Made by a program: the position numbers and the translations under genes. From Polyangiaceae bacterium (GTDB lineage Bacteria; Myxococcota_A; Polyangia; Polyangiales; Polyangiaceae), in assembly GCA_033763455.1 (NCBI GenBank), contig JANRKO010000080.1:30939-94938 (forward strand): 64,000 nt of DNA. Reading direction: 5' to 3'. Every line of letters begins with the position of its first letter. Within the stretch, counting starts at the first letter, position 1. Below are positions 233-18,473 of this stretch, piece after piece. A model generated the notes under the pieces. The model made no database searches, was not told where the DNA came from, and saw only the letters and a program-made list of their open reading frames with translations.

Positions 233-2692
233 TCAATGCTGAACTTTCGGTTTCCGTAAAGGAACAATGTCGGCGCCGGGTTCGGTGGAAATCTTGGGGT
301 GGGCACGGAGCAGGCTGATAATGAGGCTCGTTCCCCAACCTTCTTCGCTACGCAGTGTGAGCCGGCCGTGGCTATTTTCGACAGCCGCTGCCAACGCCCC
401 GAGGCTCGCAAGCCCTGCGGGGGGATCTGCTGGCGCTGTCAACGTGCGTTTCAGCGCAGCTGTCGGCACGTCCAATCGTAGATCAAGGAGTGAGACTTCC
501 ACCCTCAGGTGTCGCTCACGGATAGTGACGACGGGTCCCGTGCCCGAGCCCTCCCGCGCTGCCGCTTCGACTAAAAATTGCTCCAATGTTGCGCTGAGTT
601 CCGGGCGATGACCGATGACTTGAGCAACGACACGGGGGGCTTGAAGGCGGATATTCCCCTGGTTACGTCGCGCCACGGTATCTACAACGTCCGTTATTAC
701 CTGCGCCATGGAAAACACGGTGAGCACGTCCCGTCGCTCCGGAAATGCTTGAACATTGTCGCCTTCCTCACTCACCTGATGGCGCTGCACTTCCACCACA
801 GACCCCACGAAGCCGGCTCCGCCTTGTTCCTCGCTCTCCATCGCCTTGACTGAAATCACGAGCGCTCGCTGGCTTCCGTCACGTCCGAGTGTTGGCAGTT
901 CCACTAGCCAGCCCTTATCGGCCACTTCACTGAGGCTTGGTGCTGGCAGGCTGAGGCGGGAGCTTACCGCGCCGAGTAGGCGCGTGAGGGGCAATGTGCG
1001 CACAGGGATCATGCCGCTAGGTCCGGCCTCCGGAAGCTCGAGCTCACAATACCTCAACAGATCGAGCACTGCGCGGCCCGCGATGCGAATGTCGCCAAAG
1101 GCGTCAGCATACATTAGCCCCACCGGTGCCGACCGCAAAACGCTGCTGAAGAGCTGAAGTTCGTCCAGTGCGGTGCGGGCCTGTGTGATCAAATTGTGAG
1201 AGTCCGCTCCAGCTTCGCCGACTAAAAGCCCGGCGGTACGCCGCCAATCATCCTGACGCCCGCGCTCAATTCGGCGTTTTCTTATTAGCTCGGCAACATC
1301 GTTACCAAGCCGCAACGACAATTCTGGCTTTTTCGCGTAGGAATCTGCGGCGTTCTTGCCGATCAAGAAGATGTAGCCTTCGAGTTCGCCCGCTGCCTCC
1401 AGGGGGATAAACAGCATCGGCACTCCCGCCATCACCACGTAGTCGTGCAGCACCTTGATGGCGCGCGCGCCAGTCTCGTCGACGTACGGAGTGCGGCGAA
1501 CGTCTCTGCGTCGTTCGCGAATAATGGACTCGTTGAGGTCGCCGTGTGGCCACACTTTCAAGCGCCAACTAAACGCAGGGAGCTCCGCAACAAGGACTGC
1601 GTCCGCCGGGTGAGATTGCGCGATTCTGTCAGCTAGGCGCTCAAAGAATTCAGCGTCTGGGAGTGCGTGTGTTCCTGGTGTGCCCAAGGTTGCGCCTGCG
1701 AGCAGCTTCTCGGCGCTGCTTCTCGCACGGCGTTGAGCGAACACGCGGGGAGCGTGAAGCGTGGCAGTGTGCACAAGCAACGCGAGGCCAAGGCTTGGAA
1801 GTGGCCACAAAACGCCAATTCCGCGGGCTCCAAAGAGCGAGGCCGAAACGAGTAGCAAGTAGATCGCGAGAGGAGGCAGGTGCCCGAGCGAACGCCACCG
1901 CCTATGCCGCCCGAGGAACAGGAGAAAAGCGCCCGTTCCAACTGCTACGAGGGCAACTTGCCAAAACACCGCCGGCTCGCGTGGCCCTTCCTCGATGGCA
2001 CCCGCCATGGAAGCTGCCACTCGGGCACTCAAGGGGCCAAGTGCGTTCACGTGATTTCCGTCGATGAGTGCGTCGTCCAGTGAAAGCAGCGCGATCCGCC
2101 GCTTCAAGACGTCCGCTTCGACCCGACCCTCGCGTAGATCGGTCAACGAGATGCGTGGCACCGATTCCCAAGGGCGCGGGGAAACCCAGCGTGTTCGGGC
2201 GAACCCTAAGGGTTTCAGGCGATGGAAATCTGCAGGGGGCGCGTAGAATCCCAATATCCTTCCGTCGCTGTCACGCAGCAGCGTTGGAGCGGGCAGCACT
2301 GCTAGGTTCGACACCACGGCGTCGCCTTGCGGTCCGCACAGTTTGTCGAGTGGAGGCAACAGTAGGCTGAAGCGCGCCCCCCCAACGTGTGCGGCTTTCA
2401 CTACCGAAGTAAAACAGTCGGAGCGGTGCGCCTCGCTTGCGTCGACGGATACCACGACAACGCTCGTTGGCGGTTCGCGCTTGGCCGTCAGCTCCAAAAG
2501 GGTGCGGTGTAGCCAGTGGTCAACGAACCCGAGCGGAGAACTGACCGCGACGAGTACGAGCAAGGTTGCTGCTAGAGCATCGAGTGAGACGTAGTCCCAG
2601 AACGGGTGCTGTCGTCGAACCGCGGACGCCATAGGGCGCGGCAGCAAGAACTTGCGCGGCACCTTTCCCGGCTTCGAACGGAACCATTTCAT
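233..2692 (-). CDS. CHASE2-like membrane sensor with GAF/PAS-like regions and a degenerate HATPase_c domain (pseudo-histidine kinase)
   Basis: N-terminal TM then 'PPTSVVVVSVD' (CHASE2-like start) and three further TM helices. PAS-like 'APVGLMYADAFGDIRIA'. C-terminal 'VENSHGRLTLRSEEGWGTSLIISL' resembles HATPase_c, but the N and G1 boxes are degenerate. Confidence 0.7.
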   Translation of the reverse strand: MKWFRSKPGKVPRKFLLPRPMASAVRRQHPFWDYVSLDALAATLLVLVAVSSPLGFVDHWLHRTLLELTAKREPPTSVVVVSVDASEAHRSDCFTSVVKAAHVGGARFSLLLPPLDKLCGPQGDAVVSNLAVLPAPTLLRDSDGRILGFYAPPADFHRLKPLGFARTRWVSPRPWESVPRISLTDLREGRVEADVLKRRIALLSLDDALIDGNHVNALGPLSARVAASMAGAIEEGPREPAVFWQVALVAVGTGAFLLFLGRHRRWRSLGHLPPLAIYLLLVSASLFGARGIGVLWPLPSLGLALLVHTATLHAPRVFAQRRARSSAEKLLAGATLGTPGTHALPDAEFFERLADRIAQSHPADAVLVAELPAFSWRLKVWPHGDLNESIIRERRRDVRRTPYVDETGARAIKVLHDYVVMAGVPMLFIPLEAAGELEGYIFLIGKNAADSYAKKPELSLRLGNDVAELIRKRRIERGRQDDWRRTAGLLVGEAGADSHNLITQARTALDELQLFSSVLRSAPVGLMYADAFGDIRIAGRAVLDLLRYCELELPEAGPSGMIPVRTLPLTRLLGAVSSRLSLPAPSLSEVADKGWLVELPTLGRDGSQRALVISVKAMESEEQGGAGFVGSVVEVQRHQVSEEGDNVQAFPERRDVLTVFSMAQVITDVVDTVARRNQGNIRLQAPRVVAQVIGHRPELSATLEQFLVEAAAREGSGTGPVVTIRERHLRVEVSLLDLRLDVPTAALKRTLTAPADPPAGLASLGALAAAVENSHGRLTLRSEEGWGTSLIISLLRAHPKISTEPGADIVPLRKPKVQH

Positions 2693-2776
2693 AGGGGGCT
2701 ACCAGGACTCCTACGGCCGGGTTCGGCTATTTTTTGGGGGTCTTCTGCCGATTGAGCTCCGCATGGCCGGTTTGTC

Positions 2777-2874: not shown

Positions 2875-5800
2875 GTGTTGGAATTTCTCGGGATAGGCAC
2901 CTCCCACGCCTGGAACGTATTTCCGGACAACGGTTTGGACCGGAGCTTGCACGCGCCGATCTTGATCGGGCTTTTGTTCCTCACGTTTTTCCGAGAAACG
3001 TTCGGCTGGAGCTACGCGGGATTGGTCGTGCCCGGCTACCTCGCCGTGGTGGCGCTTTCGGCACCTGTTACCGGTGCTCTCATCGTTGGAGAAGCGATCT
3101 TGGCTTACTGGTTGGCGTACGCCGTTGGGCGTCTCCTACCGCGGTTGGGGCTGTGGTCGCCACTATTTGGCAGAGAGCGATTCCTGCTGATCATACTGGC
3201 CTCTTTGGTGGTGCGGCTTGCGCTGGAAGGATACTGGATCAGTTGGTTGGTAAATCGCTACGGACTCACCCATTCTCGCGAGCTCCATAGCATTGGGCTG
3301 GTGCTCGTGGCCCTTTTGGCCAACGCGTTCTGGAATTCAGGGTTCGTTGCAGTCTTACCGCGACTCGGCTTGGTCGTAGGGGCTACGTACTTGGTTGTTG
3401 GCCAGGTATTGCTTGCCCATACAAACTTCACGCTAGCGCGCTTTCAAGTAGCCAATGAGAGCGTGTCCCTCGCTTTTCTGGAGACGCCCCACGCCCACAT
3501 TATTTTGGCGCTCGGTGCCATCATGGCAGCGCGGGATAACGTCCGCTACGGGTGGGATTATAACGGAATTCTAGTGCCCGCCCTCCTGGCGGTAGCCTGG
3601 TATTCGCCCACCAAGCTCCTAACAACCGTCTTGGAGGCGCTGCTGGTGTTGTGGCTCTCCAAGCTCGTCACGCAATATGGGCCGCTTGCGCGCGTGCTGA
3701 TGGTTGGCTCGCGGCGTATGTTGGTTGCCTATTCCGTTGGGTTCTTTACCAAATGGGTGGTTGGTTTTGCGATGATGCGGCTTCTGCCGGGCGTGCAACT
3801 ATTGGATTTTTTCGGGTTCGGATACCTATTGCCGTCGCTCTTGGCGATCAAAATGTGGAACACGGGGCGCATTCCCACCGTTATTATGCCGACGCTTCAG
3901 GTTTCGCTGGGTGCCTTCATCGCGGGAAACGCCCTGGCTTATAGCCTTCGTTTGGCTGAAAACGCGTTGGCTTCTGCGCAGCCCGGATCGACGATTGAAA
4001 CATCACGCTCCGTTGCCTGGGATCTTCTACGCGCGGACAGTGCACCGGAGCCGCGCCCACAGGCCCTGCGAGTGTTTGAGAGATCACCCGCTCAACAGGT
4101 GCTGCAAGTTATCGAGGCGATTCCTGGGGCGAGCGCAGATCTTGGAGGCATCGAATGGGAGCCGAGCATTCGAGTCGCTAAAACCCCAGATAAATGGTGG
4201 GTTTTGGGCCCGCGCTCGCTCGACCCGGACAACGATTGGGTATGCCCTCGTGTCGCGCTATCGTTCGATAGCAAGCAGAACTGGCTCGTAGTGGCCGAAA
4301 CTTCCGAGGCCGCTTCTGCTAACATCGTTGTGGCATCTGAGCTTGCGAAGAGGATCTCTGCCAGAGCTGTAGTGGTGCGTTCCACACAGCCGGCGTTGGC
4401 ACCCTTTGACGATGCCTTCATTGACGAGCTAAACCAACGTCTCAATATCGAGTTGGTGATCATTGTGCGCCAGAGTGCGGGGCCCGCTCGGCTGGAGCTT
4501 TCCGGCAAGTTGCCTGAGGGGCTCGATGCGGCGTGGATGCGGCGGACTGTGGGCGGGCAGTTGGCGCTTACCTGGCGTGCGCCGAGCGTGGGGAAAAGTC
4601 CCACGGACAACGCCCCGATCCTGTTGATTGACCGAGCAACCGCCGAGACAACTGCGGCGGCTTTGCTTTCCGCGCCGGAACCGGAACTTTGGGGCCCGAG
4701 CTTGCGCGAGGTGTTGGACGTGAAAATGCCAGCACTCACCTCCGTACTTCCCGGCCACCACAGGAATCCAACCATCGAAGAGCTTCGCATTTTCTCCAAA
4801 GGTGTTGGTCGAACCTTCCTCCGCTTCGCTAGAGGTGAGGCAGCCCCGACGGCCTATAGTCGAGCGATAGCTGCAGAGCTCGGGCTTAGAACGGCCAAGG
4901 TCAGCGATCCGACTGGAGACATGTGGGCGTTGTTCTCCCCACCGGGCGAAGAACGAGAGGGGCATGCTACGTGGATAGTTCGAGGTCCAGGGAAGGTTGA
5001 AGATCGAGGCCGGCGGCCGGTATTGCTCGAAGTTCCGAGTCCGCTGTGGGAACGGGGAACGCTTAGCGCCGCGCTGTCGTTCTCTCGCGCGCTTGGTTCA
5101 CAATCGATGCTCCTATCCGGTTCCTTTCCCACGGCCACCCCAGATGGCAGTGCGGACGTGCGTAGTGTTTTCGGCAAGCGTTCTTACTTTCAACATATTC
5201 ACGAGCTTTGGATACAACAGCAGGGCTTGGTTCTGAGCGTTCAAGGCATTGCACCTTCTCGTATCGCGAATGCTGACGTGATCGTGACGTTGCCGCAGGA
5301 CTTGAGCGACTTCGGTCGCGCACCCAGCTGGGCACATCCGCTACTGCAACTTCTAAAAGGCAGTGGGCTGGAGGTAGCGCCGGTCGATGGCTCCCTTGAA
5401 AGAGCGCCATTCGAAGCCACGGCTCAACCGACGATGGCCTACGCCCGGCGCTTCGGCGATCAACAAATGCTGATTGCCTGGCTCACCGCCGAGACGCGAC
5501 TACGCTTTGTCGCTGCGGACGAACAAGACGCCTTGACGCAGGCTAGGTTGCTGCGAATGGGCAAGCCCGTGGCCGCTCTCTCTGTGGCGGAGCGGGCCCG
5601 GTTCCTGGCTGTGTGTAAGGCCGGCGTTAGCGGCTGCCCGAGCCTTGGCTCCGAATGTTCTCTCGACACTCAAGCCCTCGCGATTGGAAGTTATGTGCGT
5701 GAACGCAATCCGTACTGGTTACGGAGTGTGCTTTCAGCAGAGCGAGGCTGCTTTGCCGAAGTTGCGCAGGATGCTGCGGGGGGAACGCTCTTTGCGCTTT

Positions 5801-5943
5801 TGGCTAACGCCAAAGAGGTTCGTTTGGTTCCACTGCGTACTGGGAGTCTGATGACGCTCGGGCGCCCCCTGCGGGACCCACCCAATCTTGAGCAGGCGGT
5901 TGCGCTAGGGCTCTCGGCCATCGCCATTGGGGCTGTGCGATGA
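2875..5943 (+). CDS. pgsC: Giant PgsC/CapC-family PGA biosynthesis membrane protein: two PgsC repeats plus an extracytoplasmic degenerate hydrolase-like region
   Basis: Repeat 1: AGLVVPGYLA, LFGRERF, IGLVLVALLANAF (PgsC signatures). Repeat 2: NGILVPALLA, GFGYLLPSLLA. Start moved to GTG 2875 behind GGAGG; the ORF track begins at 2842. Confidence 0.88.
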   Translation: MLEFLGIGTSHAWNVFPDNGLDRSLHAPILIGLLFLTFFRETFGWSYAGLVVPGYLAVVALSAPVTGALIVGEAILAYWLAYAVGRLLPRLGLWSPLFGRERFLLIILASLVVRLALEGYWISWLVNRYGLTHSRELHSIGLVLVALLANAFWNSGFVAVLPRLGLVVGATYLVVGQVLLAHTNFTLARFQVANESVSLAFLETPHAHIILALGAIMAARDNVRYGWDYNGILVPALLAVAWYSPTKLLTTVLEALLVLWLSKLVTQYGPLARVLMVGSRRMLVAYSVGFFTKWVVGFAMMRLLPGVQLLDFFGFGYLLPSLLAIKMWNTGRIPTVIMPTLQVSLGAFIAGNALAYSLRLAENALASAQPGSTIETSRSVAWDLLRADSAPEPRPQALRVFERSPAQQVLQVIEAIPGASADLGGIEWEPSIRVAKTPDKWWVLGPRSLDPDNDWVCPRVALSFDSKQNWLVVAETSEAASANIVVASELAKRISARAVVVRSTQPALAPFDDAFIDELNQRLNIELVIIVRQSAGPARLELSGKLPEGLDAAWMRRTVGGQLALTWRAPSVGKSPTDNAPILLIDRATAETTAAALLSAPEPELWGPSLREVLDVKMPALTSVLPGHHRNPTIEELRIFSKGVGRTFLRFARGEAAPTAYSRAIAAELGLRTAKVSDPTGDMWALFSPPGEEREGHATWIVRGPGKVEDRGRRPVLLEVPSPLWERGTLSAALSFSRALGSQSMLLSGSFPTATPDGSADVRSVFGKRSYFQHIHELWIQQQGLVLSVQGIAPSRIANADVIVTLPQDLSDFGRAPSWAHPLLQLLKGSGLEVAPVDGSLERAPFEATAQPTMAYARRFGDQQMLIAWLTAETRLRFVAADEQDALTQARLLRMGKPVAALSVAERARFLAVCKAGVSGCPSLGSECSLDTQALAIGSYVRERNPYWLRSVLSAERGCFAEVAQDAAGGTLFALLANAKEVRLVPLRTGSLMTLGRPLRDPPNLEQAVALGLSAIAIGAVR

Positions 5944-8369
5944 TTCGCTGGGTTGGTGTGACATTGGTCGTCTTGTTAACTGCGCTGGTGCTGTACAAAG
6001 TGCGAGAGCACGAGGGGGATACCGAGCTCGTAGATGAGATCCTCGCTTACGAATTGGTTCCAGGTCGCGCCTTGGAGGTTCCCCTCTATTCCGACATGAC
6101 CGAAGTCAACTTTACCAGTTGGATGCTCTTGCCGGATTCTTATAGCCGCGATCCCTCGCAAAGATTCGAGTATGGCGTGCAGCTCTCCCTGATCGATGCC
6201 GCAGGGCATATGCTGAGCCAGCAGGTGATTCGTTTGGTGAGTCGGGTCAGCGGAGATCCAGCTGAACCAGCTGAGCTTGGTAGATTCTCCGCTCGGCTCG
6301 TGGATGGTTCCGAACGGGTCACCGACTCACGCACCAAGGTCGTGGATACGAGTGCACTGAACGGGCGTGGGCGTCTCCGCCTCACCACTGTGCCAGGTGA
6401 ACCGGATACAGTGCTGGTGCGCTTGGCTTACCCCGAGGAAAGAAGCGAGCTCATGCAGCGGATCGCCGCCCGAACGTTAGCCCTCGGCAAGCGTCGCCGG
6501 CTGGTTGAGCAGAGCTTCAGTCTTGGCTTTTCCGATCTGCCAGAAGAAGCACGTTTGCGCGCAGTCACGGCCTGGGGCAGACGCCTTACTGCGGCTGGGC
6601 GCGCGGATACTGATTACGTGACGAGGCGGCTCCTGCTGGGATCGCTTCGCTCCGATACTGCGCCATACCAAGCAGAGCAGGTGGGTGTTCCGCTGGGCCC
6701 ACTCCACAACGCCACATTTAATCTCAAGCATAGTGTCACGTTGCGTATTGAGGCGGAGCCCGGTCGTCAATTTTCCGTACGCGAGGGGGACGCGAAGCCA
6801 AGAGAGGTGTTAGTTGGCGACAGTGGGCGAGTCGAACTGAAGGCTTCTGGTGAGGTTCCGCGTACACTCAATATCGAATCCAAGAGCAACTTGAACGCGC
6901 AGTTCAGCCTACCCGCTAGCGATTCATCGGCCCTCATTGGCGATCTTGAGCCGATGTTGAAAGGTGGCCGTCTCTGGCTATCTCCGGACGTGCGGAACGC
7001 TCGCTTCTATCGGCTGGATCCTGCTGAACCTGTCCAATTCTCGATTGCGCCTCTGCAAGCCGTTCTGAGGTTGGTGGTGCGTGGGCTCGTTTTTGACTCC
7101 ACGGCGCCTAAGCCTGTGTGGGTAAGAGTATTGTGGGATGGCCAGGCTCCAGACCAAGTTCCCGAGCTACAAGCCGAGCTCCCAGTCAGTCCCACTGATG
7201 ACGCAGATGGAAGTCACGTGACGGCTGAGAAGAAGGTGTTGCTGCGCCTTCCGGCCCATGTGCGAAAGGTACGCGTCGTAGGCGACGGCAGTACCGTTGT
7301 GGCGGCTTTCAGCGAAGAACCGGGAGTTGCCGAGAGTCGCATTCACCCGGCGTATGATGTGCCTCTGGCGGCCAACCAGGTGTGGCGCGCTGCCCCCTAC
7401 GATATCCGGCGCTTCGCCGGCCTGCGCCCTTCCAACGAAGAAGCACTTGTTGGGGCGGCTAGAGTTGCGCGCGTAGGGTCTCAGGTTCGCATCGAATCCT
7501 TGGCGGAAGGTGTAGGCGAGCGCATTGCAGAACGCGTCCTCATTCCTCTAGCGGCACCGATGGTGCGTTCCCTTTACACACCCACTTGGGCGGCACGCGG
7601 GCGACCTTCAATGGAGGCGATCTGGAGCGTGCAGCAGGGAGAACCAACAAGCGAGCAAGTCTACTGGGTTCCTCAGTCGGGGGAGAGAGCCGCTCGGATG
7701 CCGTTGATCTACAGGGCGGATCCACGAAGCCTTGGCGGAACACTTCGGGTCACGAGTGCTCAGAAGTCGATCGCTGAGCGCCCGCTCCTTGCTCTCGATG
7801 GTGAGCTCACGTTACGGGGCCTGCCGGCGAGCCTTCCGCTCGGTGTCTCGGGCTTGGGTGCGGGCGGCATACTTCTAATCGGTGCCGCCCCGGACGCAGG
7901 TGGCAAAGTTATAGTGCGAAGCCAGAAGGTCTTCGAGCTGACCTCCCAGCGGCCCTTGCTTTTCTCCTTTCAGGTGAAGGAAGGGGAGCTGCTGTCGGCC
8001 TGGCTCAACCTAACCTCTTTGAACAAGCGCCAAAGCTACCGAGTAAAGTACGCGATCGACCGGGGCAAGCCTCGACCCGCGCCGCAGCGCTTCTTTCGCA
8101 GGATGAGCCAATGGGAGGGTGAGCTTTTGGGTTCGACGGGAAGCAAGCTCGGCCTGATCTGGGAGGCTCCGCGAGAAGGCGAAGTTAACGCGCTGTTCTT
8201 GGATCACATCGGGCTGGCGCGCATTGAGTTGGGTGATGACTTGGCGCCCGGTGTGCATACTTTGGAGCTTCGGCTAATCGGACCGGAGCCCTTGTGGGTA
8301 CGGGCCGTGCTTGCGGGGCGAGTGGCCGCCCCATCAGAAGATTTGCCTGCGCTTGCTGAGGAGGAATGA
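5940..8369 (+). CDS. Exported or membrane-anchored beta-rich protein of the PGA operon, function unknown
   Basis: 809-aa ORF with an N-terminal hydrophobic helix; ATGA overlaps with both neighbours. Confidence 0.8.
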   Translation: MIRWVGVTLVVLLTALVLYKVREHEGDTELVDEILAYELVPGRALEVPLYSDMTEVNFTSWMLLPDSYSRDPSQRFEYGVQLSLIDAAGHMLSQQVIRLVSRVSGDPAEPAELGRFSARLVDGSERVTDSRTKVVDTSALNGRGRLRLTTVPGEPDTVLVRLAYPEERSELMQRIAARTLALGKRRRLVEQSFSLGFSDLPEEARLRAVTAWGRRLTAAGRADTDYVTRRLLLGSLRSDTAPYQAEQVGVPLGPLHNATFNLKHSVTLRIEAEPGRQFSVREGDAKPREVLVGDSGRVELKASGEVPRTLNIESKSNLNAQFSLPASDSSALIGDLEPMLKGGRLWLSPDVRNARFYRLDPAEPVQFSIAPLQAVLRLVVRGLVFDSTAPKPVWVRVLWDGQAPDQVPELQAELPVSPTDDADGSHVTAEKKVLLRLPAHVRKVRVVGDGSTVVAAFSEEPGVAESRIHPAYDVPLAANQVWRAAPYDIRRFAGLRPSNEEALVGAARVARVGSQVRIESLAEGVGERIAERVLIPLAAPMVRSLYTPTWAARGRPSMEAIWSVQQGEPTSEQVYWVPQSGERAARMPLIYRADPRSLGGTLRVTSAQKSIAERPLLALDGELTLRGLPASLPLGVSGLGAGGILLIGAAPDAGGKVIVRSQKVFELTSQRPLLFSFQVKEGELLSAWLNLTSLNKRQSYRVKYAIDRGKPRPAPQRFFRRMSQWEGELLGSTGSKLGLIWEAPREGEVNALFLDHIGLARIELGDDLAPGVHTLELRLIGPEPLWVRAVLAGRVAAPSEDLPALAEEE

Positions 8370-9388
8370 TGAATGCTTGGAAGCTTACTGCTGTGTCCTT
8401 AGCCGTCGTTCTCACCGGCTGTCGCGGTTGCGAGCCGGACAAACGTGACGAATCCACCGAGATGACTCCGCCGCCCCCAGCTTCGTCAGCTCCGCCTGTG
8501 CCGTCTGCCACTTTAGGCGAGGAAAAGCCGCAAGCCGGCCCCCTTCCGCTACTGGAGCATTTGCGCTTCAGCCGCCGCAGCGAAGGCGTGCAGTTCGTGA
8601 ATCCAACGCCTGAGGAAGGTCGAGCCTTTGTCGGTTGGGTAACGGCGGTGAGCCGAGCTGCTTGGTCGGATCGACTACCCGGCGCGGCCCCACCGGATGG
8701 CTTCGAAGGTGTGTTGACCCAGCTTGGAACGCTCTGGCTGCTGCGGGAGAAATCAGACCAGCGGCGTGGTGCGGGCGCGTACGTACTTCGGGCAAGCGCG
8801 GGGCGTCCGCTCATCCTGCAGGCGCCCCACACCTTCTTCGATGCAGGCACTCTGCCCATTGCTACGCGACTCTTCGAACGGCTGCAAGCCAAAGCCCTGT
8901 TGATCAACACCGTGCATCGATCGGGTGGCCAAGAAGGCGAAGGCGAGGAGGAAAAAGAGAAAGCCCGGAGCGGTAAGTCAGAAGCTGATGTCGCTCACAA
9001 CCGTGAGAGCTTCTATTCGTTGGTTCATGAATCGTTGCTCACGGTAGATCCCACGCTGTTGGTTATTCAAATTCATGGTTTTCGAGATGCCAAAGTGCCC
9101 GGTGTCGATCTTGTGGTGAGCGCAGCAGACACGCAGGCTGATATCAGACCGATGGGGAGAATCATGAAAGGCCTGCTGGGTGCGAACCGAGTTCGACTCT
9201 ATCCCGAAGAAATTAAGCTTCTCGGTGGAACCACGAACGCTCAGGCGTTTATCAGCCGCAAAAAGCGAACCGCCTTCATTCACCTTGAGCTGTCCGCAAA
9301 GCTCCGAAAAGCGCTCGAAAAGGACGACATTTTCTTCGCAAAATTCCTCCGAGCATTTTCTCAGGCAATCCCGGAGGGCCGTCGTTGA
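8366..9388 (+). CDS. Lipoprotein, Zn-carboxypeptidase-fold PGA-hydrolase-like (PghP/DUF867 or N-formylglutamate amidohydrolase clan)
   Basis: Lipobox LTG-C and a Pro-rich linker. Motifs APHTFFDAGT, QIHGF, GGTTN and HLELS parallel the PghP-type H/E/H ligands and QLEI motif. Confidence 0.7.
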   Translation: MMNAWKLTAVSLAVVLTGCRGCEPDKRDESTEMTPPPPASSAPPVPSATLGEEKPQAGPLPLLEHLRFSRRSEGVQFVNPTPEEGRAFVGWVTAVSRAAWSDRLPGAAPPDGFEGVLTQLGTLWLLREKSDQRRGAGAYVLRASAGRPLILQAPHTFFDAGTLPIATRLFERLQAKALLINTVHRSGGQEGEGEEEKEKARSGKSEADVAHNRESFYSLVHESLLTVDPTLLVIQIHGFRDAKVPGVDLVVSAADTQADIRPMGRIMKGLLGANRVRLYPEEIKLLGGTTNAQAFISRKKRTAFIHLELSAKLRKALEKDDIFFAKFLRAFSQAIPEGRR

Positions 9389-12300: not shown

Positions 12301-14214
12301 AGGCAAGCCGAGGCGTCGCTCGTGCCGGCGGGGGATGTTCTAGCGCGCATGGATCGCGCGATTGAGTGGGTAAACGTATCCGTTCAAGGGGCTGCGGGGG
12401 TTCGTTGGCTCGAAAACGAAGGCCGTGGCGATGGCAACACCACTCTTGGGGAACGCACGCGCAGAGCGCTGACGGACGCCCCAGCGGAAGCAACCAGCAG
12501 CGGGAAAGATCCCATTGAGATTAGCCTTTTGGGGATGAAATCGAGAAGTTTGAGAGTGCATTCCTTGTGCCACGCCAGCGATGGTCAAAACGAATACTGC
12601 AGTTTCCGCTTTGAAATAGATCATCGCCCTGTCGTTTGCGGCGCATCGCCCGTAGCCTCAAGTGCGCGGGACTTCGTTGCTCTCCCTACGGAGTGTGAAC
12701 TGACGGTTCCGGAGGGGGCAGCACGCTTAAGCGTGTTTCCGCCAGCGGACCGCGACGTCTTCGGGTGGATAAACGCGCAGGAGAAGACCGTTACGGGTTT
12801 TGCACCCTTGGTTCGAGCCACTCGGTGGACGGAGATCGACGTTCCTCGACCCATGGAGTTCCAGGTGGTTGGGCCAACGGTACTCAAGATCCAGACACGT
12901 GGTTTGATCCCAGGACCGCCAAGCTTTCGTGTGGACATAGTAGAGCCCGGTGGGCAGAGCTCAGAAGCCATGGAGCCAGTGTTGTCCTCCGCGGTAGATC
13001 CGGTGTCTGTATTGAGGGATGTGGGCTCGCAGGTGACCGTGGCTGGGCGACAATACGTAACGCTCCCACTCAAGGGACAATATCGCGTTCGTCTGTCCAC
13101 ACCGAGCGGGCGTATTTTGGCAAAGGTCGAAGCGGCTTTTGCCAAAGGCTTTCCGCGTGCGCGGACCGAGGATCCGAAGGAGGATGCTGCACCTGTCGTG
13201 CAGAGTGGCGCGGCTCCAGGGCCTGCAGTTTGGCCGGCGATTGGGCTGGATCCGAAGCCAGGAGCACTCACGTTAACAGCATTTTCGAAGTACATCGATG
13301 ACCGGCGCTTGCTCGACGAGGACGCTGTTTTACGCACGAATTACGCCGAGTTGGGTGTCGGCGCGGGGCGTGAAGTCATCGACGGAACGTTGTTGGGGGC
13401 AGTCTCCCTAGCTCGACGTTTTCGCGCCGGGAGCGACAGCACCCACGCACGTTCGAGTTGGTCACTCTCTTTGGGCAATGGCTTACCCGGTGCTTGGCTC
13501 GACACTTCCTTTACCGTCCAGCGATTGCAAGAATGGCGTTGGGGTGCGGCGCTGGGCACAGGCGTATCTTACGGCGTCCCAGTTACCGAGGACTTTAAAC
13601 TGATACCCGAACTAGCGCTCGCGTTGCGGAGAGTCGATGCAGGCGCCAGAGGTAACGGTGAAGTTGATTCGGATGTCTACTCCCCTTACGGCAGAACGCG
13701 GCCCGCGACGTACGACGCCATCCTGAGCGCGTTGCACCAGCCCTGGGTCGACGCGAAAATGAGTTACCGAGCTCGCGCACGGCTTTTGCCCTCATTCCAG
13801 GGGCTCGACCGCGTCGATGGCCGAGCGCGCTTCAACGCTCTCGTTTTGCGTGATTACTTTCCTTGGCTAGGTGCGGACTTGGAACTCAGCTACCGTCCCG
13901 TTTCACCATTGCGAACGCTGAGCTTTTGGCGTGCCGAGGTTAGCCCTGGGGCGTCGTTCTGGTGTTGGACGCATGCCTCGGGTCGCTTCGTACTGAGCGG
14001 ATTGTTGGCCTATTCTGAAGACTTCCCGCGCAGTAGGGGTCGCGGTCGAGAGTTGTCGGCTCAACTCGGACTTCGCTATGACATGACTTGGCTTCGCGGT
14101 CTCTCGGATTACAGCGCCGACGAGCGGCCTTTTCAAGACAGGCTTGAGGAAGGTTCAGCGCCACCTCGTCGGGGAGTTGCTCCGCGGGATCCGAACTGGA
14201 GCGAGCCGCCGTGA
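9385..14214 (+). CDS. Large secreted protein with helical (TPR-like) and beta-sandwich segments and a predicted C-terminal outer-membrane beta-barrel
   Basis: Signal peptide ending ANA-W; helical Ala/Leu/Arg-rich blocks; amphipathic beta-strand pattern from about 13260 to 14090; 4-nt overlaps with both neighbours. Confidence 0.7.
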   Translation: MTMRLNARVARHLFVSLVFIVGWLTSQRANAWDALAWGVPQQVRVFRWEDARMPAMLLRSVDPLVDAELLDQELLLSPVKPGQEVRIFGDPVEVGLGSGSRDLPDVITWQAPGAWLRRVAAGVHELRVPTYESARWVVVRSPYPKTRVRLEVALPEVSNILWYRAEENVWRMLEGGPVPTLLGPLASHQSEIRFLDAARRAFPEGVGREFLQSHWLEFAWQERGLGRPYFVSAQVGPAPAPVPLLQQASAPWVPQPDGSWVTSLTEGHTAAVHSDEAEVVTLFVRAHAVGQIRIVVRQGAGLVAVMKQDIARNAEDPARLTPATRFRLPMAPGTPISIQVQRGTAELSISGYRARPSITDGTPIRQRTELLRLGMRGKGASAAERVARVLSKLALCRCPEAVEEGQELLTITTGKVRALVLFELIYQGIGLVDVNVLLPQFWKATAGLEETDRLAFRRQLLQRLTEVDAEPLQVEHLEDVAIRSGFVETEALSEDAFATAALAEMIAVPRDGARPWFAAAAEVRAAERPERADLVELGRRSWFRTAPWSWIDPSGSETISRVRNVYGARPEELCESQGDRGPRWLRLSHTPEPLAIRADSGTHARVLLRSEAEVPAADTSVQVGATQIHVHAGIGLYSSMGLAPGTHEIHVQSGPDILAQLPLAQPVPCGRLREIERWVPIRQSVHFAITRGEVGTVGRLLLDLDQANPKFGEVEVRVQNEVHRAWARAPATGAVEFPLPKDVEAFEVRSGEPVLVRALQRLHKMPKAQAPRALAKLDVPLNEPELLAQVRRSTRALGTSKSAKERATLRLARAKALQDLGYLRLAAVDRVRANQPESDTDRSDATAEWLLLPPGSPPVVALNLLAKIPPLPLPIPSKTLELAFRQRQLGAPPVDVISTLGASAQYSSAVDALLLAVLAEQLGLLEVSASAYERIGHALRSGHALAHSAELRADFAEKEQSLDQTMTAYITARQAEASLVPAGDVLARMDRAIEWVNVSVQGAAGVRWLENEGRGDGNTTLGERTRRALTDAPAEATSSGKDPIEISLLGMKSRSLRVHSLCHASDGQNEYCSFRFEIDHRPVVCGASPVASSARDFVALPTECELTVPEGAARLSVFPPADRDVFGWINAQEKTVTGFAPLVRATRWTEIDVPRPMEFQVVGPTVLKIQTRGLIPGPPSFRVDIVEPGGQSSEAMEPVLSSAVDPVSVLRDVGSQVTVAGRQYVTLPLKGQYRVRLSTPSGRILAKVEAAFAKGFPRARTEDPKEDAAPVVQSGAAPGPAVWPAIGLDPKPGALTLTAFSKYIDDRRLLDEDAVLRTNYAELGVGAGREVIDGTLLGAVSLARRFRAGSDSTHARSSWSLSLGNGLPGAWLDTSFTVQRLQEWRWGAALGTGVSYGVPVTEDFKLIPELALALRRVDAGARGNGEVDSDVYSPYGRTRPATYDAILSALHQPWVDAKMSYRARARLLPSFQGLDRVDGRARFNALVLRDYFPWLGADLELSYRPVSPLRTLSFWRAEVSPGASFWCWTHASGRFVLSGLLAYSEDFPRSRGRGRELSAQLGLRYDMTWLRGLSDYSADERPFQDRLEEGSAPPRRGVAPRDPNWSEPP

Positions 14215-17200
14215 GCCTGGACGCGTTAGCTGAAGATCTGGCTCGGCGCCTCACGCCGCTATTGCCACTATTAGATGCTAGAGTGCGCCAGCCGGCGCTG
14301 TTGGCTGTCACCGGGCGCGCCGTGATGCTCAACCATGGCCACGTGGAAACCTCATCTAGGCTGCTCGTGGGTCTGGTTCGAGCCGCTGCCGAAGCTTGTT
14401 CTGCTTTGGCGCAACATAGGAAGCAACGAGAACAAATCATCCAAACGTACCATGGCAAGGAGAGCCCAGAGGAAAGGCGCCAGGTCATTACCGACGCGCT
14501 TCCGGCACTCGCATCCTCGCCCGCCCAGTTGGCCGCCGATCTAGCAGCTACGCGGCGAAACTTAGGTATCGAAGCCCTGATGGAGCGCCTACAAGAGCGC
14601 CTCTCCGATGACGTGGACCAGGTGGAAGTCGCCTACAAGGCAGCGCGCGCCGTCGTAGCGCTCATCTCAGCCGAGGCGCAGAGTCTTGCCGGACATGAAG
14701 TCGAGGCCCTTTTGGCCCTCGCATTCAAACACGTGTGCGCGAACCACCACGATGCCATATCGATTGTGGCTTTGGAGTTTACCGAAGCACTTCTCGGTAC
14801 TTTGCGAGCGAACGACCGCTTACTCGTGCTCACGCCGGATCGTTACACAGCTTTTCGCAAGCTCGCCTTAGAGCCGAACCTCAATCCATGGGTCCGCGTG
14901 GCAGCTCTGGGCGCATGTATTGTGGCGGCTCCGAAGCATGGCGTAGCGCTTCTCGAACAGGTACTCGATGACCGAACGGGTAGGGACGCCCAGATCCTGC
15001 GACATCGGGCGGTAAAACGCCTACTCGAGGTGGAACCAGAGAGGTCGCGGCTACTCGCCCTCATTCGGCAGATCCGAAGCGATCCGAGCGAACACGTGCG
15101 CCAAGGCCTCTGCTGGTTTCTGGCGCGAACGAACGATGGCGCACCAAATCTCGGAGCGCTGTGTCTGAGTGATCCGAGCCCGAGCGTACGTGGCTACGCG
15201 TTGCGCGAACTTTCTCGAAGTGCGGCGGCAAGCGGACAGGGCTTGGATGTCCTCTTGGCGACGGTTCTTGAACTACTGAAGAAGGCGGCAACCGGCACGG
15301 ACGCCCCCATCGTTCTGCGCGTCTTACTGGAAGAAATTACCCGGCACGCGACGGCATCGCCACGGGCCTTTCCGCTGACGCCTTTCGTGAAGCCTCTAGA
15401 GGCGCTACTTGCGGCGACGTCAGTCGCGAGCAGCCTCAAGGCCAACGTCGCTGAGCTGCTCCTCAAGCTTGAGATATACTCGGATGCCGAGTTGTTAGAT
15501 CTCTGTCGCGAGTTTGAGGCCCATCTTGAGGAGCTTGAGGAAGGGCAGAGCCGGATCGTGGATTTGCCGAGCCAGGCTTCCGAAGAGCAGGTGGAAAAGG
15601 CTCTTATGGTGGCCGGCAGGCATGATTTGTCTATTTCCGCTCGCTGGGCAGGCTCCGGAAGTCTCGTCATTATGCGCGGTGAGCCAAGAGGCTGGCGCCT
15701 TTGGCGGACGCTTTTCGAAGTCAGAACTCCGGCACCCGATAAACGCCAGGGGTATGCTCACTCCAAAGCACGGGTTCGGTTTGGTACCATCTACATTGCT
15801 CCTCGCGGCTTGGCTGAGGTAACGCCCACGCGGGTTCCTGGTGAACGCCAATGGTACCCGGACCTAGGCGGTTGGGGGGAATTTCTGCCGAGGGTCGATG
15901 ACCTCCTGTTCGTTTCTGGCCTGAGCGCACGCGCACGGCGAATCGTCACCGCATTTGGGACGTTGGTGATCTCCCCTCCCGTAAGTTTCTACAGAAGGCT
16001 CAAGAACTACTTTCAGCTCACCTTCCATTACGAGCGCTGGAGCCAGCTGCGCGAACGATCTCTCCGAGCAAAGCAGCCGGATGAGCGGCTTCAGTTTTCT
16101 GAGCACGTTGCCTCGTTGGGGTACACTGTCCGGCTATCTAATACCGAAAGCGAAGCCTCTGGTGTAAAGTGCGATAGGCGCCCAGCTCACGCTGAGCATT
16201 ACCTATCCTTGGCCCTGCCATTCTGGTTCGACGACTTGATCAACTCGGGGCTCTCGTCGTCCGGCAACAGTGCCTGGCATCTGGCGATTGTTATCTGGCT
16301 AGCATTTTGTGGAATGATCGTGCGTTCGGCATGGATTCGGCGAAATATCGAGCGGGCGCGGAGGCGCATACCCCTCAGGATCGGAGGTTGGGGTAGCCGA
16401 GGAAAGAGTGGCACCGAGCGGATCAAAGCCGCCCTGTTCCATGCCATGCGCTATGAAACAGTCGTAAAAACGACAGGCTGTGAGGCAATGTTCATTCATG
16501 CGCGGCGTGATCAGCCCGCGCGCGAGATGTTTGTCTACCGACCGTACGACAAGGCAACCATTTGGGAACAGCGCAATGTGCTTGAGACGGCTTCGCGCCT
16601 CAAGGCGCAGGTGTTCTTATGGGAGTGCATGGCCTTGCAACCTGTATTTGTGCGTCAGCTCATGCTCGATTGGATGCAAGATAAGCTGGCTACGCTCACC
16701 AACGCCTATCCAGATCACGAAGACATCATGGGCCCCTCAGGGGAAGATGTAGCGCGGGTGATTGCGAGCTTTATGCCCGAAAATGGCGTTGCCTTCACCG
16801 CGGAAGACCAAATGTTTCCGATCATTGCCGATTCGGCACGGCGCCGCCATACCGAGCTTCACACGGTGACCGACACGGATGCGCAACTCTTGCCTAAAGA
16901 TCTGCTCGATCGCTTCCCCTATCAGGAGCACCCAAAGAACATCGCACTCGTTTTGGCGCTGGCTGCCCATCTCGGAGTTGAGCCTGATTGGGCCATGGTA
17001 AAGATGGCTGATTACGTTGTTCCGGATCTGGGGGTGTTGAAAACTTATCCGGAAATCGTCGTCAGAAATCGAAAGATGAAGTTCTCTAACGGCATGAGCG
17101 CCAACGAACGTGCGGGGTTTCTGTCCAACTGGCAGCGGCTTGGTTTTGATGTTTTGGACGCGGAAAATCAGCCTGAAATCGTCAGTGTGGCCGTTGTGAA

Positions 17201-18473
17201 CAACCGAGCTGACCGGGTGCCGCGCTCACGGGTGTTCGCTGAGCTCCTGGTAAAAGATGCCGCGTGCGACGTCATTGTTCTTATCAATTCAAATTTGATC
17301 GCGATGCGACGGTTCCTTCTGGAGAATGTTGCGCAGGTAACCCTTGGCGTCGCGTTTCAGGCCACAGGAGGCCCTGCGGCCGTCGCCCAGGCAACCTCGG
17401 TATTAGACGAGCTTTGGCAGAGGTTCCGCATTCTGAATAAGCGTTCGGTGGTTCGACGCAAGTTGGAGCTTATTGTTCTCGCGAGCGGCCTCGACATTGC
17501 TCTCGTTGAAAAGCTCTGTGAAAAACTCGATGAAGTGTCGGTGCCCGAGATCGAGGGCCTCGTGCGTGCGGCGAGTCCGGCGGCTCCGCCAGGTTCGGAG
17601 GCGCTGGACCCAAGTGTTCCATCTTCGCTCCCAAGTGACGAAGACACGCTTCGTCACATCGTCCAAATGGTGGAGTCTTATCAGATCGCCGTGCAGGCGC
17701 GGCAGGCCGTTCTTTCGGCCGTTGAACAAGGTCAAGCTGGGCAAGCGCGACGAAAGCTGGATGAGGCGCTTTTGAAGCTTCTAGAGCGGCGAATTTGCGT
17801 TCTCATGGACGTGCGCGCCAATGGCGATCAGGTAATCGACTTCATCGCCGACCAGGTGCCTCCCGGGCACCGTGCACATTTGCTTGGGTGCCAGAACATC
17901 AAGGGAACCGGGCTTGATTTCGTCTATCGCTGGATCTCTATGGAGCAGGTGTTTCGTACTCTGGAGGGCCTTCGGTCAGAGCCGGATCGGCGCGCGGACC
18001 ACTTGCAGGCACTCATCGAACACACTGACTACGGTTACTTCGATGCGCGGGACGCCCACGCACGGCTCTTAGAGTTGGCACACGACCCGGGGTTTGATGG
18101 CCTCCGGGCAGAGTTGAGCGTAGCGGAGCGGCACCTAGCCGGAGTTGTGGCTGCGCGCCTTGCCAAGCTCAAGGGGGGCTCGACAACAACACGGCTGAGC
18201 CAAGTACTCGGACACATCGAGCCCTGGTTCGACCACCTGGACTCCATCCATCGCACGCGGTTCGCTCAGCGCGTATTGCGCCAGCTTTGCGCACAGCAGA
18301 TCGGGCAGGGGCGCGCGGCAGAACTTCTGCGAGAGGTCACGGCACGTGGGAAAGGCGGGTGGCTGTACGCGATGGCCAAAAGTAGGCTGCCTCGGCTCAC
18401 CGCAAAAGGGGCCCCAAAAACAAGAGGGGCCCCAAAAGCAAAAGAGGCCCCGAAGAAGTCCGACCGAGGTTAA
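14211..18473 (+). CDS. pgsB: PGA synthase PgsB/CapB (Mur-ligase family) with an about 690-aa N-terminal HEAT-repeat extension
   Basis: GSRGKS P-loop (about 16392), KTTG, ECMALQP, DHEDIMGP, NGMSANE, NNRADRVPRS and GCQNIKG, in PgsB order. HEAT-like DPSEHVRQ and DPSPSVR repeats. TM at about 16272-16338. Confidence 0.9.
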   Translation: MSLDALAEDLARRLTPLLPLLDARVRQPALLAVTGRAVMLNHGHVETSSRLLVGLVRAAAEACSALAQHRKQREQIIQTYHGKESPEERRQVITDALPALASSPAQLAADLAATRRNLGIEALMERLQERLSDDVDQVEVAYKAARAVVALISAEAQSLAGHEVEALLALAFKHVCANHHDAISIVALEFTEALLGTLRANDRLLVLTPDRYTAFRKLALEPNLNPWVRVAALGACIVAAPKHGVALLEQVLDDRTGRDAQILRHRAVKRLLEVEPERSRLLALIRQIRSDPSEHVRQGLCWFLARTNDGAPNLGALCLSDPSPSVRGYALRELSRSAAASGQGLDVLLATVLELLKKAATGTDAPIVLRVLLEEITRHATASPRAFPLTPFVKPLEALLAATSVASSLKANVAELLLKLEIYSDAELLDLCREFEAHLEELEEGQSRIVDLPSQASEEQVEKALMVAGRHDLSISARWAGSGSLVIMRGEPRGWRLWRTLFEVRTPAPDKRQGYAHSKARVRFGTIYIAPRGLAEVTPTRVPGERQWYPDLGGWGEFLPRVDDLLFVSGLSARARRIVTAFGTLVISPPVSFYRRLKNYFQLTFHYERWSQLRERSLRAKQPDERLQFSEHVASLGYTVRLSNTESEASGVKCDRRPAHAEHYLSLALPFWFDDLINSGLSSSGNSAWHLAIVIWLAFCGMIVRSAWIRRNIERARRRIPLRIGGWGSRGKSGTERIKAALFHAMRYETVVKTTGCEAMFIHARRDQPAREMFVYRPYDKATIWEQRNVLETASRLKAQVFLWECMALQPVFVRQLMLDWMQDKLATLTNAYPDHEDIMGPSGEDVARVIASFMPENGVAFTAEDQMFPIIADSARRRHTELHTVTDTDAQLLPKDLLDRFPYQEHPKNIALVLALAAHLGVEPDWAMVKMADYVVPDLGVLKTYPEIVVRNRKMKFSNGMSANERAGFLSNWQRLGFDVLDAENQPEIVSVAVVNNRADRVPRSRVFAELLVKDAACDVIVLINSNLIAMRRFLLENVAQVTLGVAFQATGGPAAVAQATSVLDELWQRFRILNKRSVVRRKLELIVLASGLDIALVEKLCEKLDEVSVPEIEGLVRAASPAAPPGSEALDPSVPSSLPSDEDTLRHIVQMVESYQIAVQARQAVLSAVEQGQAGQARRKLDEALLKLLERRICVLMDVRANGDQVIDFIADQVPPGHRAHLLGCQNIKGTGLDFVYRWISMEQVFRTLEGLRSEPDRRADHLQALIEHTDYGYFDARDAHARLLELAHDPGFDGLRAELSVAERHLAGVVAARLAKLKGGSTTTRLSQVLGHIEPWFDHLDSIHRTRFAQRVLRQLCAQQIGQGRAAELLREVTARGKGGWLYAMAKSRLPRLTAKGAPKTRGAPKAKEAPKKSDRG

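Follow-up and report, generated by a model that had tools for sequence, protein, structure and literature searches.

How does a cell with two membranes move a large anionic polyamide over the periplasm and the outer membrane? To our knowledge, nearly all that is known of the biology of poly-gamma-glutamate (PGA) comes from Bacillus and other bacteria with a single membrane, and we found no description of such a route in the literature searched. The question is raised by a stretch of 64,000 nucleotides from a Polyangiaceae bacterium (assembly GCA_033763455.1, contig JANRKO010000080.1, positions 30,939 to 94,938; hereafter the window). Judging from its sequence, one region of the window is a conserved six-gene module, made up of a divergent gene (g0) and five co-oriented genes (g1 to g5) and arranged around two core PGA enzymes. 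We put the chance that this module is an envelope-spanning polyglutamate synthesis-and-export system somewhat above even. An earlier reading of the same DNA (the original prediction) had proposed such a system for g1 to g5, and its individual claims are taken up below where the evidence bears on them.

Relatives of two core PGA enzymes in one operon

Genes g1 to g5 all lie on the plus strand (Table 1), and the four junctions between them are 4-nt stop/start overlaps (ATGA, ATGA, TTGA and GTGA, in order), which implies that the five genes are co-translated. Both the list of open reading frames (ORFs) and the junction sequences agree with the original prediction on this point. Its choice of GTG 2875 as the start of g1 is also likelier than the GTG at 2842 which opens the longest ORF, because GGAGGA at 2862-2867 stands seven bases 5′ of GTG 2875 and the N-termini of relatives begin at the equivalent site. 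The operon ends at g5, because the next gene (18475-19980, minus strand) is convergent.

PgsB is an ATP-dependent ligase and PgsC is its membrane partner, and the last and first genes of the operon encode relatives of these two proteins. The last gene, g5, had been described as PgsB-like and several times longer than usual, which holds: the protein has 1420 aa and matches TIGR04012, the PgsB equivalog model, with E 1.8e-64 over profile positions 2-332 of 380. The second-best NCBIfam family, FolC, reaches only E 0.063. Across 18 homologues, the P-loop GGWGSRGKSG (residues 725-734) is invariant, as is NAYPDHED (831-838), with Y833 only nearly so, and many further positions of the ligase core do not vary either. 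We take this combination of a P-loop (GxxGKS/T) and an acidic/His motif to be the Mur-ligase-type signature of PgsB. A hydrophobic helix (residues 691-709) followed by an Arg-rich stretch stands directly before the ligase, which is also the arrangement in Bacillus PgsB (PMC7490850).

The ligase domain takes up only the middle of g5. In a profile search of the PDB, g5 matched alphaRep (HEAT-like) proteins with E 4e-12 and gave no Mur ligase or PgsB structure at E≤1, and segments 1-440, 440-690 and 1040-1420, scanned separately, matched no family. Two near-invariant stretches (485-565 and 1205-1240) lie outside the PgsB model and have no family match; they could be regulatory or partner-binding sites. 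At three loci in other genomes (L053 14514-18679, L054 1370-5730 and L062 896-5190), g5 is present as two ORFs, one with the HEAT part (~680-740 aa) and one with the ligase (~710-740 aa). The break falls exactly before the hydrophobic helix, so the N-terminal part is a separable module.

The first gene, g1, is PgsC-like as predicted, and its CapC/PgsC domain (PF14102) is present twice, in two stretches that together score 153 bits against a Pfam gathering cut-off of 27. The rest of the protein (residues 397-1033) matched no family in Pfam and NCBIfam scans, including a scan of sub-segments. When a profile of the g1 C-terminus was compared with that of the g3 family by hhalign, two further domains came to light, the first of them partial (Table 1), and blastp also links residues 666-823 to a g3 paralogue of the same genome (E 2e-4). 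The second domain is without the His residues that are invariant in g3 (PHTFFD is replaced by PSPLWE, and IQIHGF by SVQGI). Because residues invariant in g3 are replaced, these copies look like non-catalytic, degenerate relatives of g3. For the same part of g1, the ESM Atlas gave weak leads only, to clusters of PF05908 (0.78) and PF05013 (0.76). PhoA fusions in E. coli placed PgsB in the cytoplasm and the C-termini of PgsC, PgsA and PgsE in the periplasm (PMC7490850). The pseudo-hydrolase domains of g1 would thus be periplasmic, since they are homologous to a secreted protein and stand behind a PgsC with a periplasmic C-terminus.

The third Bacillus partner, PgsA, has no counterpart here: PF09587 (PgsA/CapA) gave 0 matches in the whole genome (93.7% complete), and as a control the same family was found in 7 of 14 reference genomes. 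Two matches to gamma-glutamyltranspeptidase (GGT, CapD-type) lie on contigs C2 and C6 and glutamate racemase lies on contig C50, with none of these on the window's own contig, C80. The original prediction had likewise recognised no capA/pgsA, capD or racemase in the window. PgsA appears to be dispensable, because B. subtilis pgsBC without pgsA made 26 g/L PGA with a D/L ratio of 5/95 (PMC6029982). By analogy with that strain, the absence of PgsA and of a local racemase suggests that the product may be L-rich, which is speculation.

The core of the module therefore resembles the Bacillus PgsBCA(E)/CapBCA(DE) systems in its PgsB-type ligase with a helix directly before the P-loop, its CapC/PgsC partner and its single operon, but it also differs from them. 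The PgsB-like protein has 1420 aa against ~400 aa and carries a HEAT N-terminal part and a C-terminal extension; PgsC is duplicated in tandem and fused to ~650 aa with two degenerate hydrolase-like domains; the gene order is C...B, not B-C-A; no PgsA was found in the genome and there is no CapD at the locus; and there are three extra envelope proteins, including an outer-membrane barrel. Since it has no PgsA and both core proteins score below their equivalog thresholds, the module is not a canonical PgsBCA operon.

A hydrolase-fold lipoprotein and an outer-membrane barrel

Between the two core genes lie g2, g3 and g4, whose export signals appear to place all three proteins beyond the cytoplasm. 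The original prediction had called the product of g3 a hydrolase-like lipoprotein, and this stands, at the level of fold: the protein has a lipobox (LTGC) and shares its fold with gamma-PGA hydrolases. It has no Pfam or NCBIfam match, and its family profile found 0 matches in the PDB. The AlphaFold2 model has a mean pLDDT of 79.6, with values above 90 over most of the core. Its five best structural matches are two FGase-family proteins and three gamma-PGA hydrolases: Atu2144 of the FGase family (2odf; Z 14.2, Foldseek E 1.3e-5), YndL with bound PGA (5onj; Z 13.4), PghP of phage PhiNIT1 (3a9l; Z 13.0, Foldseek E 4.9e-5), an N-formylglutamate amidohydrolase (2q7s; Z 12.9) and PghP of phage PM1 (21dc; Z 12.8). 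These stand 2-4 Z units above the carboxypeptidases, which score Z ~10 (Z 10.8 or less for these and the other matches), and Foldseek puts the same proteins in the lead (E 1e-5 to 4e-4). The alignments cover 171-183 residues over the five, and 171-181 for the PF05908 members. All of these nearest folds act on glutamate amides.

Twelve positions of g3 are invariant in 17 homologues (P154, H155, D159, N181, R185, D208, H237, G238, S252, N291, H306 and E308), as are the motifs H-x3-D, H-G and H-x-E which they contain. In the model, H155, D159, H237, H306 and E308 sit at strand ends, a placement of His/Asp/His and His-x-Glu that resembles zinc carboxypeptidase-type sites. From the model and these residues, g3 would be a metal-dependent hydrolase of the PghP/YndL/FGase fold. 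It differs from the known members of that fold group in having no significant sequence match to them (PF05908, PDB profile) and in being a lipoprotein with an extra N-terminal helical part; it also differs from PghP in being encoded inside a synthesis operon and not by a phage. PF05908 itself matches one of the 17 g3 homologues (E 0.0089).

The 1609-aa product of g4 has no Pfam or NCBIfam match, either as a whole or for segments 31-805 and 806-1272. Its predicted outer-membrane barrel was assessed by modelling the last 400 residues from 30 aligned sequences. The barrel is there: about 14 long antiparallel strands were modelled with confidence (Table 1), at residues 87-358 of the modelled piece. 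The closest structures are CymA (Z 18.9 over 254 residues, rmsd 3.3; Foldseek E 2.4e-7) and OmpG (Z 17.2-18.4; Foldseek E 3.9e-7), with matches to the two spanning 226-259 residues, and they are followed by FhaC (Z 14.8), PelB (Z 14.6) and BcsC (Z 14.1). Foldseek also found the barrel of PgaA (4y25; E 1.1e-6). At 6-10% identity, the likeness to CymA and OmpG gives no evidence of common descent, and g4 differs from both in that its barrel is the C-terminal domain of a far larger protein and is followed by a conserved tail. Since its genome encodes BamA (619 bits, over the cut-off), the organism possesses an outer membrane in which such a barrel could sit.

The g4 barrel domain is common, with 1106 representative clusters at 50% identity for E≤1e-3 (1034 at 1e-10 and 630 at 1e-30). 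It stands at the C-terminal end in the 150 clusters listed, most of which are 1000-2000 aa long; about a quarter of these 150 proteins are shorter and may be fragments. The tail behind the barrel (PFxDRLEEGS) is common to the closest relatives of g4, although outer-membrane proteins do not usually continue at the C-terminus past the barrel. Of 18 relatives of g4 that were scanned, one has a tetratricopeptide repeat (TPR) match over the cut-off (TPR_19, 9e-11; L157 16113-19637, from a Blastocatellia metagenome-assembled genome, or MAG), and in this homologue the TPR lies in the N-terminal part, ahead of the same barrel domain.

A hydrolase fold and a channel-like barrel could also serve a system for taking up and breaking down foreign polyglutamate, in which the barrel imports the polymer, the hydrolase degrades it and the membrane proteins act in transport. 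This would suit the resemblance of g3 to PGA-degrading enzymes, the role of CymA and OmpG as uptake channels and the predatory or saprophytic habit of many of the myxobacteria that carry the genes. Against it, the ATP-dependent ligase, whose P-loop is intact, and the doubled PgsC belong to synthesis and not to catabolism, and family scans detected no transporter or peptidase family in g1, g2 or g5. We consider uptake very improbable.

The remaining two proteins are less readily assigned. Directly downstream of the PgsC-like gene, g2 is the exported protein of no recognised family that had been predicted to lie between the two core genes: it has an N-terminal hydrophobic helix and matches nothing in Pfam or NCBIfam. 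Its family profile found only chance-level matches in the PDB, to designed Ig proteins (E 0.055 or worse), and the ESM Atlas returned only unnamed or "hypothetical" clusters and a poor model (pLDDT 0.54), from which no fold was assigned. An iterated profile, which grew from 9 to 30 members, found the family in 29 other ORFs.

The divergent gene, g0, has no Pfam match of its own in the window, and hydropathy suggests an N-terminal helix, a ~180-aa segment outside the membrane, a helix cluster at 242-295 and a ~520-aa cytoplasmic part. At 15 of the loci fetched from other genomes (see below), a g0 homologue lies directly upstream of g1 on the same strand (4 found by phmmer and 11 by hhalign), and the window's g0 aligns with upstream genes of other loci at hhalign 100% and 98.8%. 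PF05226 (CHASE2) matches 10 of these 15 homologues at E<0.01, and in 7 cases the score exceeds the cut-off; HATPase_c, HisKA or PAS is matched as well by some of the 15. Because its homologues adjoin g1 elsewhere and match CHASE2, we assign g0 on sequence grounds as a sixth conserved member of the module, probably a CHASE2-type protein like sensor kinases, whose orientation is reversed in the window.

Table 1. Genes and features of the module, with positions in the window
Feature	Position	Strand	Description
g0	233..2692	-	819-aa membrane sensor-like protein, divergent; related to CHASE2 sensor kinases
g1	2875..5943	+	Tandem CapC/PgsC membrane protein with ~650-aa C-terminal extension; longest ORF from GTG 2842 (1033 aa)
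g1, CapC/PgsC domain 1	2965..3351	+	Residues 42-170; PF14102, 88 bits
g1, CapC/PgsC domain 2	3511..3882	+	PF14102, 82.6 bits
g1, first (partial) g3-like domain	4132..4392	+	Residues ~431-517; hhalign 85%, E 6e-6
g1, second g3-like (PghP/FGase-like) domain	4759..5508	+	Residues ~640-889; hhalign 97.1%, E 6e-11
g2	5940..8369	+	809 aa; one N-terminal hydrophobic helix, large and probably periplasmic body
g3	8366..9388	+	340-aa lipoprotein (lipobox LTGC); PghP/YndL/FGase-like carboxypeptidase-type hydrolase fold
g4	9385..14214	+	1609 aa; signal peptide (...SQRANA/WD), ~1260-aa periplasmic part, C-terminal outer-membrane barrel
g4, beta-barrel	13270..14085	+	Residues ~1296-1567; ~14 strands, model pLDDT 82.9
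g4, C-terminal tail past last barrel strand	14086-14211	+	R.L.D..P....PF.DRLEEGSG ... P.W
g5	14211..18473	+	1420-aa PgsB-like protein: ~690-aa N-terminal part with HEAT repeats, hydrophobic helix, ligase, ~380-aa C-terminal extension
g5, HEAT repeats	15057..15317	+	Residues 283-369; PF13646, 27.8 bits vs cut-off 27.7
g5, conserved stretch	15663-15905	+	Residues 485-565; GEPR..RLWR..ELRTP.PDKR.GY.H..AR...; near-invariant (18 homologues)
g5, hydrophobic helix	16281..16337	+	Residues 691-709; hydropathy 2.06; then Arg-rich stretch and P-loop
g5, PgsB-type amide-ligase domain	16290..17327	+	Residues 694-1039; TIGR04012, E 1.8e-64
g5, conserved stretch	17823-17930	+	Residues 1205-1240; GDQVIDF...GCQNIKGTGLDFVYRW; near-invariant (18 homologues)

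The genes 3′ of the operon look unrelated to the module. The convergent neighbour at 18475-19980 encodes a 501-aa ADP-ribosylglycohydrolase (PF03747), and a PhyH-family dioxygenase (20567-21499) and a CBM9-containing protein (21936-23378) come after it. The sequencing runs listed with window positions 8400-18399 are all of sediment or soil metagenome DNA, with no RNA run among them.

Conservation of the gene set

When g5 was searched against 401 genomes sampled evenly over the window's phylum, 121 of them gave matches at E≤1e-20. The matches were of two kinds. The long form, defined by E≤1e-70 together with matches outside the ligase core, was present in 43 genomes (the window's genome included), and 78 had the short kind only, with E 1e-23 to 1e-45, alignments confined to residues ~650-1080 and mostly ~400-500-aa frames. 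Up to 20 kb around the match was fetched for 32 of the 42 other long-form genomes; those left out had little upstream sequence or lower rank (G292, G096, G048, G112, G206, G232, G276, G352, G381 and G387). Two of the fetched loci were stubs of less than 5 kb (L049 and L070), leaving 30 that were informative.

The claim that the five genes co-occur elsewhere is borne out by these loci. In 27 of the 30, g1, g2, g4 and g5 have the same order on one strand, and 25 of those 27 also have g3 in the place between g2 and g4, as a free gene (20 loci), fused to the end of g2 (four: L041, L043, L051 and L056) or in one ORF with g4 (L064). Elsewhere the set is rearranged or reduced: at L060, g0-g1-g2 and g4-g5 form divergent units, and at L061 only g4 and g5 are present. 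The family HMMs used for the final locus table were built from these same loci, and independent links come from single-sequence phmmer (g1, g3 and g5), an iterated profile (g2) and profile-profile alignment (g4). Homology of g4 needed profiles, because single-sequence phmmer found no relative in the fetched loci and a word-based search found only 4. The g4 proteins of the fetched loci form five phmmer clusters, all of which align with the profile of the window's g4 (hhalign 97.9-99.9%).

The gene set also extends beyond the phylum. A Gammaproteobacteria MAG has the identical g1-g2-g3-g4-g5 order (1079, 818, 291, 1682 and 1402 aa), a Blastocatellia MAG has g1-g2-g3 adjoining a convergent g4-g5, and in Candidatus Uabimicrobium (Planctomycetota) g1-g2 is divergent from g4-g5. 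In Sorangium cellulosum So ce56 (NC_010162; L154 and L160), g1, g2 and g4 are clustered near 10.48-10.50 Mb. Long relatives of g5 make up at least 1338 clusters at 90% identity (781-2485 aa), the best of which are 45-46% identical to g5 and come from Polyangiaceae MAGs. Where such relatives are named, in Polyangiaceae, Sorangium, Chondromyces and Polyangium, the name is only an automatic one, "capsule biosynthesis protein CapB", in line with the suggestion that similar clusters may already carry automatic annotations.

Because the gene set is conserved elsewhere, its arrangement in the window is not a product of chance. We give almost no probability to the view that g1 to g5 are chance neighbours or mis-called ORFs which form no single system. 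High-GC DNA does give many spurious long ORFs, and g2 and g4 belong to no database family. But order and strand are kept in most informative loci and across phyla, profile comparisons link all of the g2 and g4 homologues, the g3 and g4-barrel models are confident, and the barrel domain recurs in more than a thousand representative clusters. Chance association and mis-calling are ruled out by these conservation data.

The same genome holds a second, divergent system, with its genes on contig C5 (L007 42-11647, minus strand) and in the terminal stretch of C65 (L008 11304-15344, minus strand). C5 carries, in order, a paralogue of g3 (340 aa), a 646-aa protein with tandem CapC domains that is 42% identical to g1, an ORF of 338 aa, and relatives of g2 (662 aa) and g4 (1446 aa), the last of which runs to the start of the contig. 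Another long PgsB (1346 aa; 36% identity with g5) starts 476 bases from the end of C65, and C5 and C65 may adjoin. Between the g3 paralogue and the window's g3 the identity is 81%, and all other parts of the second system are at most 42% identical to their counterparts. Between the g3 paralogue and the second CapC gene, on the opposite strand (L007 9352-10608, plus), lies a third member of the g3 family (blastp E 4e-7, family HMM 4e-61), a secreted protein of 418 aa that contains many cysteines as well as a Gly/Ser-rich linker. When the product of the 338-aa ORF and the C-terminal part of the second CapC protein were compared with the g1 C-terminus and g3, the matches were weak (hhalign 47% or less). 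Together with g0 and the pseudo-hydrolase domains of g1, this second system had been overlooked by the original prediction.

Relatives of the bacterium also carry compact PGA genes. In the window's own family, 11 of 29 sampled genomes have the short form only and 0 of 29 have the long form. In three loci examined (L161, L162 and L163, from relatives G275, G085 and G012), pgsB and pgsC are adjacent in B-C order. Compact PgsB has 396-407 aa and is 31-38% identical to residues ~680-1040 of g5, and compact PgsC is a single-domain protein of 147-170 aa (258 aa in the longest ORF of L161). The ORF after compact pgsC (380-440 aa) matches no Pfam family and is not PgsA (PF09587), and no g2, g3 or g4 relatives were found within the 18 kb examined. 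The compact loci thus contain the same ligase and CapC domains as g5 and g1, but as short single-domain proteins, in B-C order and without relatives of g2 to g4 nearby.

A proposed route for polyglutamate across two membranes

If the module makes and exports polyglutamate, its parts suggest the following sequence of events. The PgsB-type ligase of g5 would be anchored at the inner membrane by its hydrophobic helix and would add glutamate to a lengthening chain via gamma-amide bonds at the expense of ATP. The doubled PgsC domain of g1 would partner the ligase and deliver the chain into the periplasm in the manner of Bacillus PgsBC, without PgsA. In the periplasm, the chain would be handled by the two degenerate PghP-like domains of g1 and by membrane-anchored g2, and it would leave the cell through the ~14-strand barrel which ends the large periplasmic protein g4. 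The g3 lipoprotein may trim, release or clear the polymer, a role for which there is a parallel in polysaccharide systems, where BcsZ, AlgL, PgaB and PelA cut or release the polymer. Finally, g0 could couple production to an outside signal as a CHASE2-type sensor. What stands of the original prediction of a trans-envelope system for a glutamate-type polyamide is the layout, the PgsB and PgsC relatives, the hydrolase fold, the barrel and the co-occurrence of the genes; that the polymer is polyglutamate and that it passes through the barrel is what we infer from them.

Several results weigh against this proposal, and the first group of them concerns the chemistry. Neither core protein reaches its NCBIfam equivalog cut-off: g5 scores 217.8 bits (221.6 in a six-frame search) against 222.7 for TIGR04012, and g1 scores 75.8 bits against 96.45 for TIGR04011, the PgsC model. 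Since both fall short, the substrate could differ. FGase-family proteins fit the fold of g3 as well as PGA hydrolases do, and PF05908 (Gamma_PGA_hydro) has no match in g3 or anywhere in the genome at E≤0.1. As a point of topology, the N-terminal 690 residues of g5 have no signal peptide, although the charges on either side of the helix behind them suggest that its N-terminal end faces out.

The chemical points would also fit a PgsB-like ligase that, instead of forming a free glutamate homopolymer, joins glutamate or some other amino acid to a different acceptor (protein, lipid, glycan or peptidoglycan precursor) or makes another polyamide, with the other genes processing or displaying the product. 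The extensions of g5 at 1-690 (very conserved at 485-565) and 1040-1420 are absent from characterised PgsB, and Francisella has capBCA homologues that are not known to make polyglutamate. We nevertheless judge a different acceptor or polyamide to be distinctly unlikely, given that no other model matches the two core proteins nearly as well as those of PgsB and PgsC, that ligase, membrane partner and hydrolase fold are three independent pointers to gamma-glutamyl chemistry, and that the compact pgsB-pgsC pairs of relatives resemble g5 over the same domain.

The second group of adverse results concerns export. CymA and OmpG are 14-strand channels and polysaccharide exporters have 16-18 strands, so the nearest structures to the g4 barrel are smaller than exporters such as PgaA, BcsC and AlgE. 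The window's g4 also has no TPR match at E≤10 and no other known scaffold. A gamma-glutamyl polymer might instead be retained in the periplasm or fixed as a capsule-like layer, in which case g4 would be an anchor or platform and g3 a transpeptidase-like or trimming enzyme. The barrel size, the conserved tail behind the barrel and the non-catalytic hydrolase-fold copies of g1, which could simply bind polymer, all suit retention, and the PGA of B. anthracis is anchored and not released. On the other side, no CapD-type gamma-glutamyltranspeptidase is encoded at the locus (both GGT matches being on other contigs), and a barrel on a 1260-aa periplasmic protein is the layout of known exporters, two of which, PelB and BcsC, came up in the structural comparison at Z ~14. 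We therefore regard retention as unlikely and continue to favour export.

The third group concerns the gene set, which is not always complete or contiguous. No g3 was found in two of the 27 colinear loci (L040 and L062), and at L069 g5 stands alone within 19 kb. In an Alphaproteobacteria MAG, g4 is missing from its place between g3 and g5 (g1-g2-g3-g5). In So ce56, the long PgsB homologue lies ~120 kb from the g1-g2-g4 cluster, near 10.37 Mb, with no other member in the 20 kb examined there.

The original prediction had also compared the system to synthase-dependent exopolysaccharide (EPS) machines, and here the likeness is one of layout only. Like PgaABCD, BcsABZC, the alginate system (Alg8/44/K/E/L) and PelA-G, the module combines an inner-membrane polymerase, a membrane-anchored periplasmic partner, a periplasmic cleaving enzyme and a large barrel-ended protein, and the barrels of PelB and BcsC are among the structural matches of g4. 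Unlike those systems, its polymerase is an amide ligase and not a GT2 glycosyltransferase, its g4 has no TPR (as noted, one of 18 relatives has one) and its barrel is closest to 14-strand CymA/OmpG, not to the 16-18-strand exporters. Pfam and NCBIfam scans of g0 to g5 found no glycosyltransferase family, and family scans of the module proteins found no PilZ, GGDEF, EAL or other c-di-GMP module. Because no glycosyltransferase, c-di-GMP module or TPR was found, the module is not a synthase-dependent EPS system.

Published mentions of these genes are sparse. A 2015 BLAST survey lists PgsB/PgsC matches of Sorangium, Chondromyces and Haliangium in a supplementary table (subjects of 1138-1414 aa) and does not analyse them further (PMC4497714), and a MAG paper deduces from gene annotation that other phyla make PGA by "CapBC" (PMC9324843). 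Our search on myxobacterial PGA genes and on PgsB in bacteria with an outer membrane found no description, in keeping with the original prediction that no experimental account was known; subscription journals were mostly outside its coverage, so one may exist.

A broader claim, to which we would give a little less than an even chance, is that the module represents the first case of an outer-membrane export pathway dedicated to a polyamide (i.e., to a polymer that is neither polysaccharide nor protein). It would couple a PgsA-independent PgsBC to periplasmic proteins that handle the chain, to a trimming enzyme like PghP, to a CHASE2 sensor and to a porin of 14 strands, and would have evolved in parallel to the synthase-dependent polysaccharide machines. 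It would be widespread in Myxococcota and would also occur in Pseudomonadota, Acidobacteriota and Planctomycetota, and polyglutamate would be a common, overlooked matrix polymer of soil and sediment bacteria with two membranes.

The module supplies concrete candidates for every step of synthesis and export, and it brings new parts: three families without a Pfam or NCBIfam model, a duplicated PgsC with pseudo-hydrolase domains and a PgsB of 3-4 times the usual size. The hypothesis is directly testable, because cultivable and genetically tractable myxobacteria (So ce56, Chondromyces and Polyangium) carry the system. If it is true, the module would provide a PgsA-free route to PGA, maybe an L-rich one (by analogy with PMC6029982), which would be of interest for Gram-negative production hosts. 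It would also add a polyamide branch to the envelope-spanning polymer secretion systems, and would suggest that soil and sediment bacteria make an overlooked matrix or capsule polymer.

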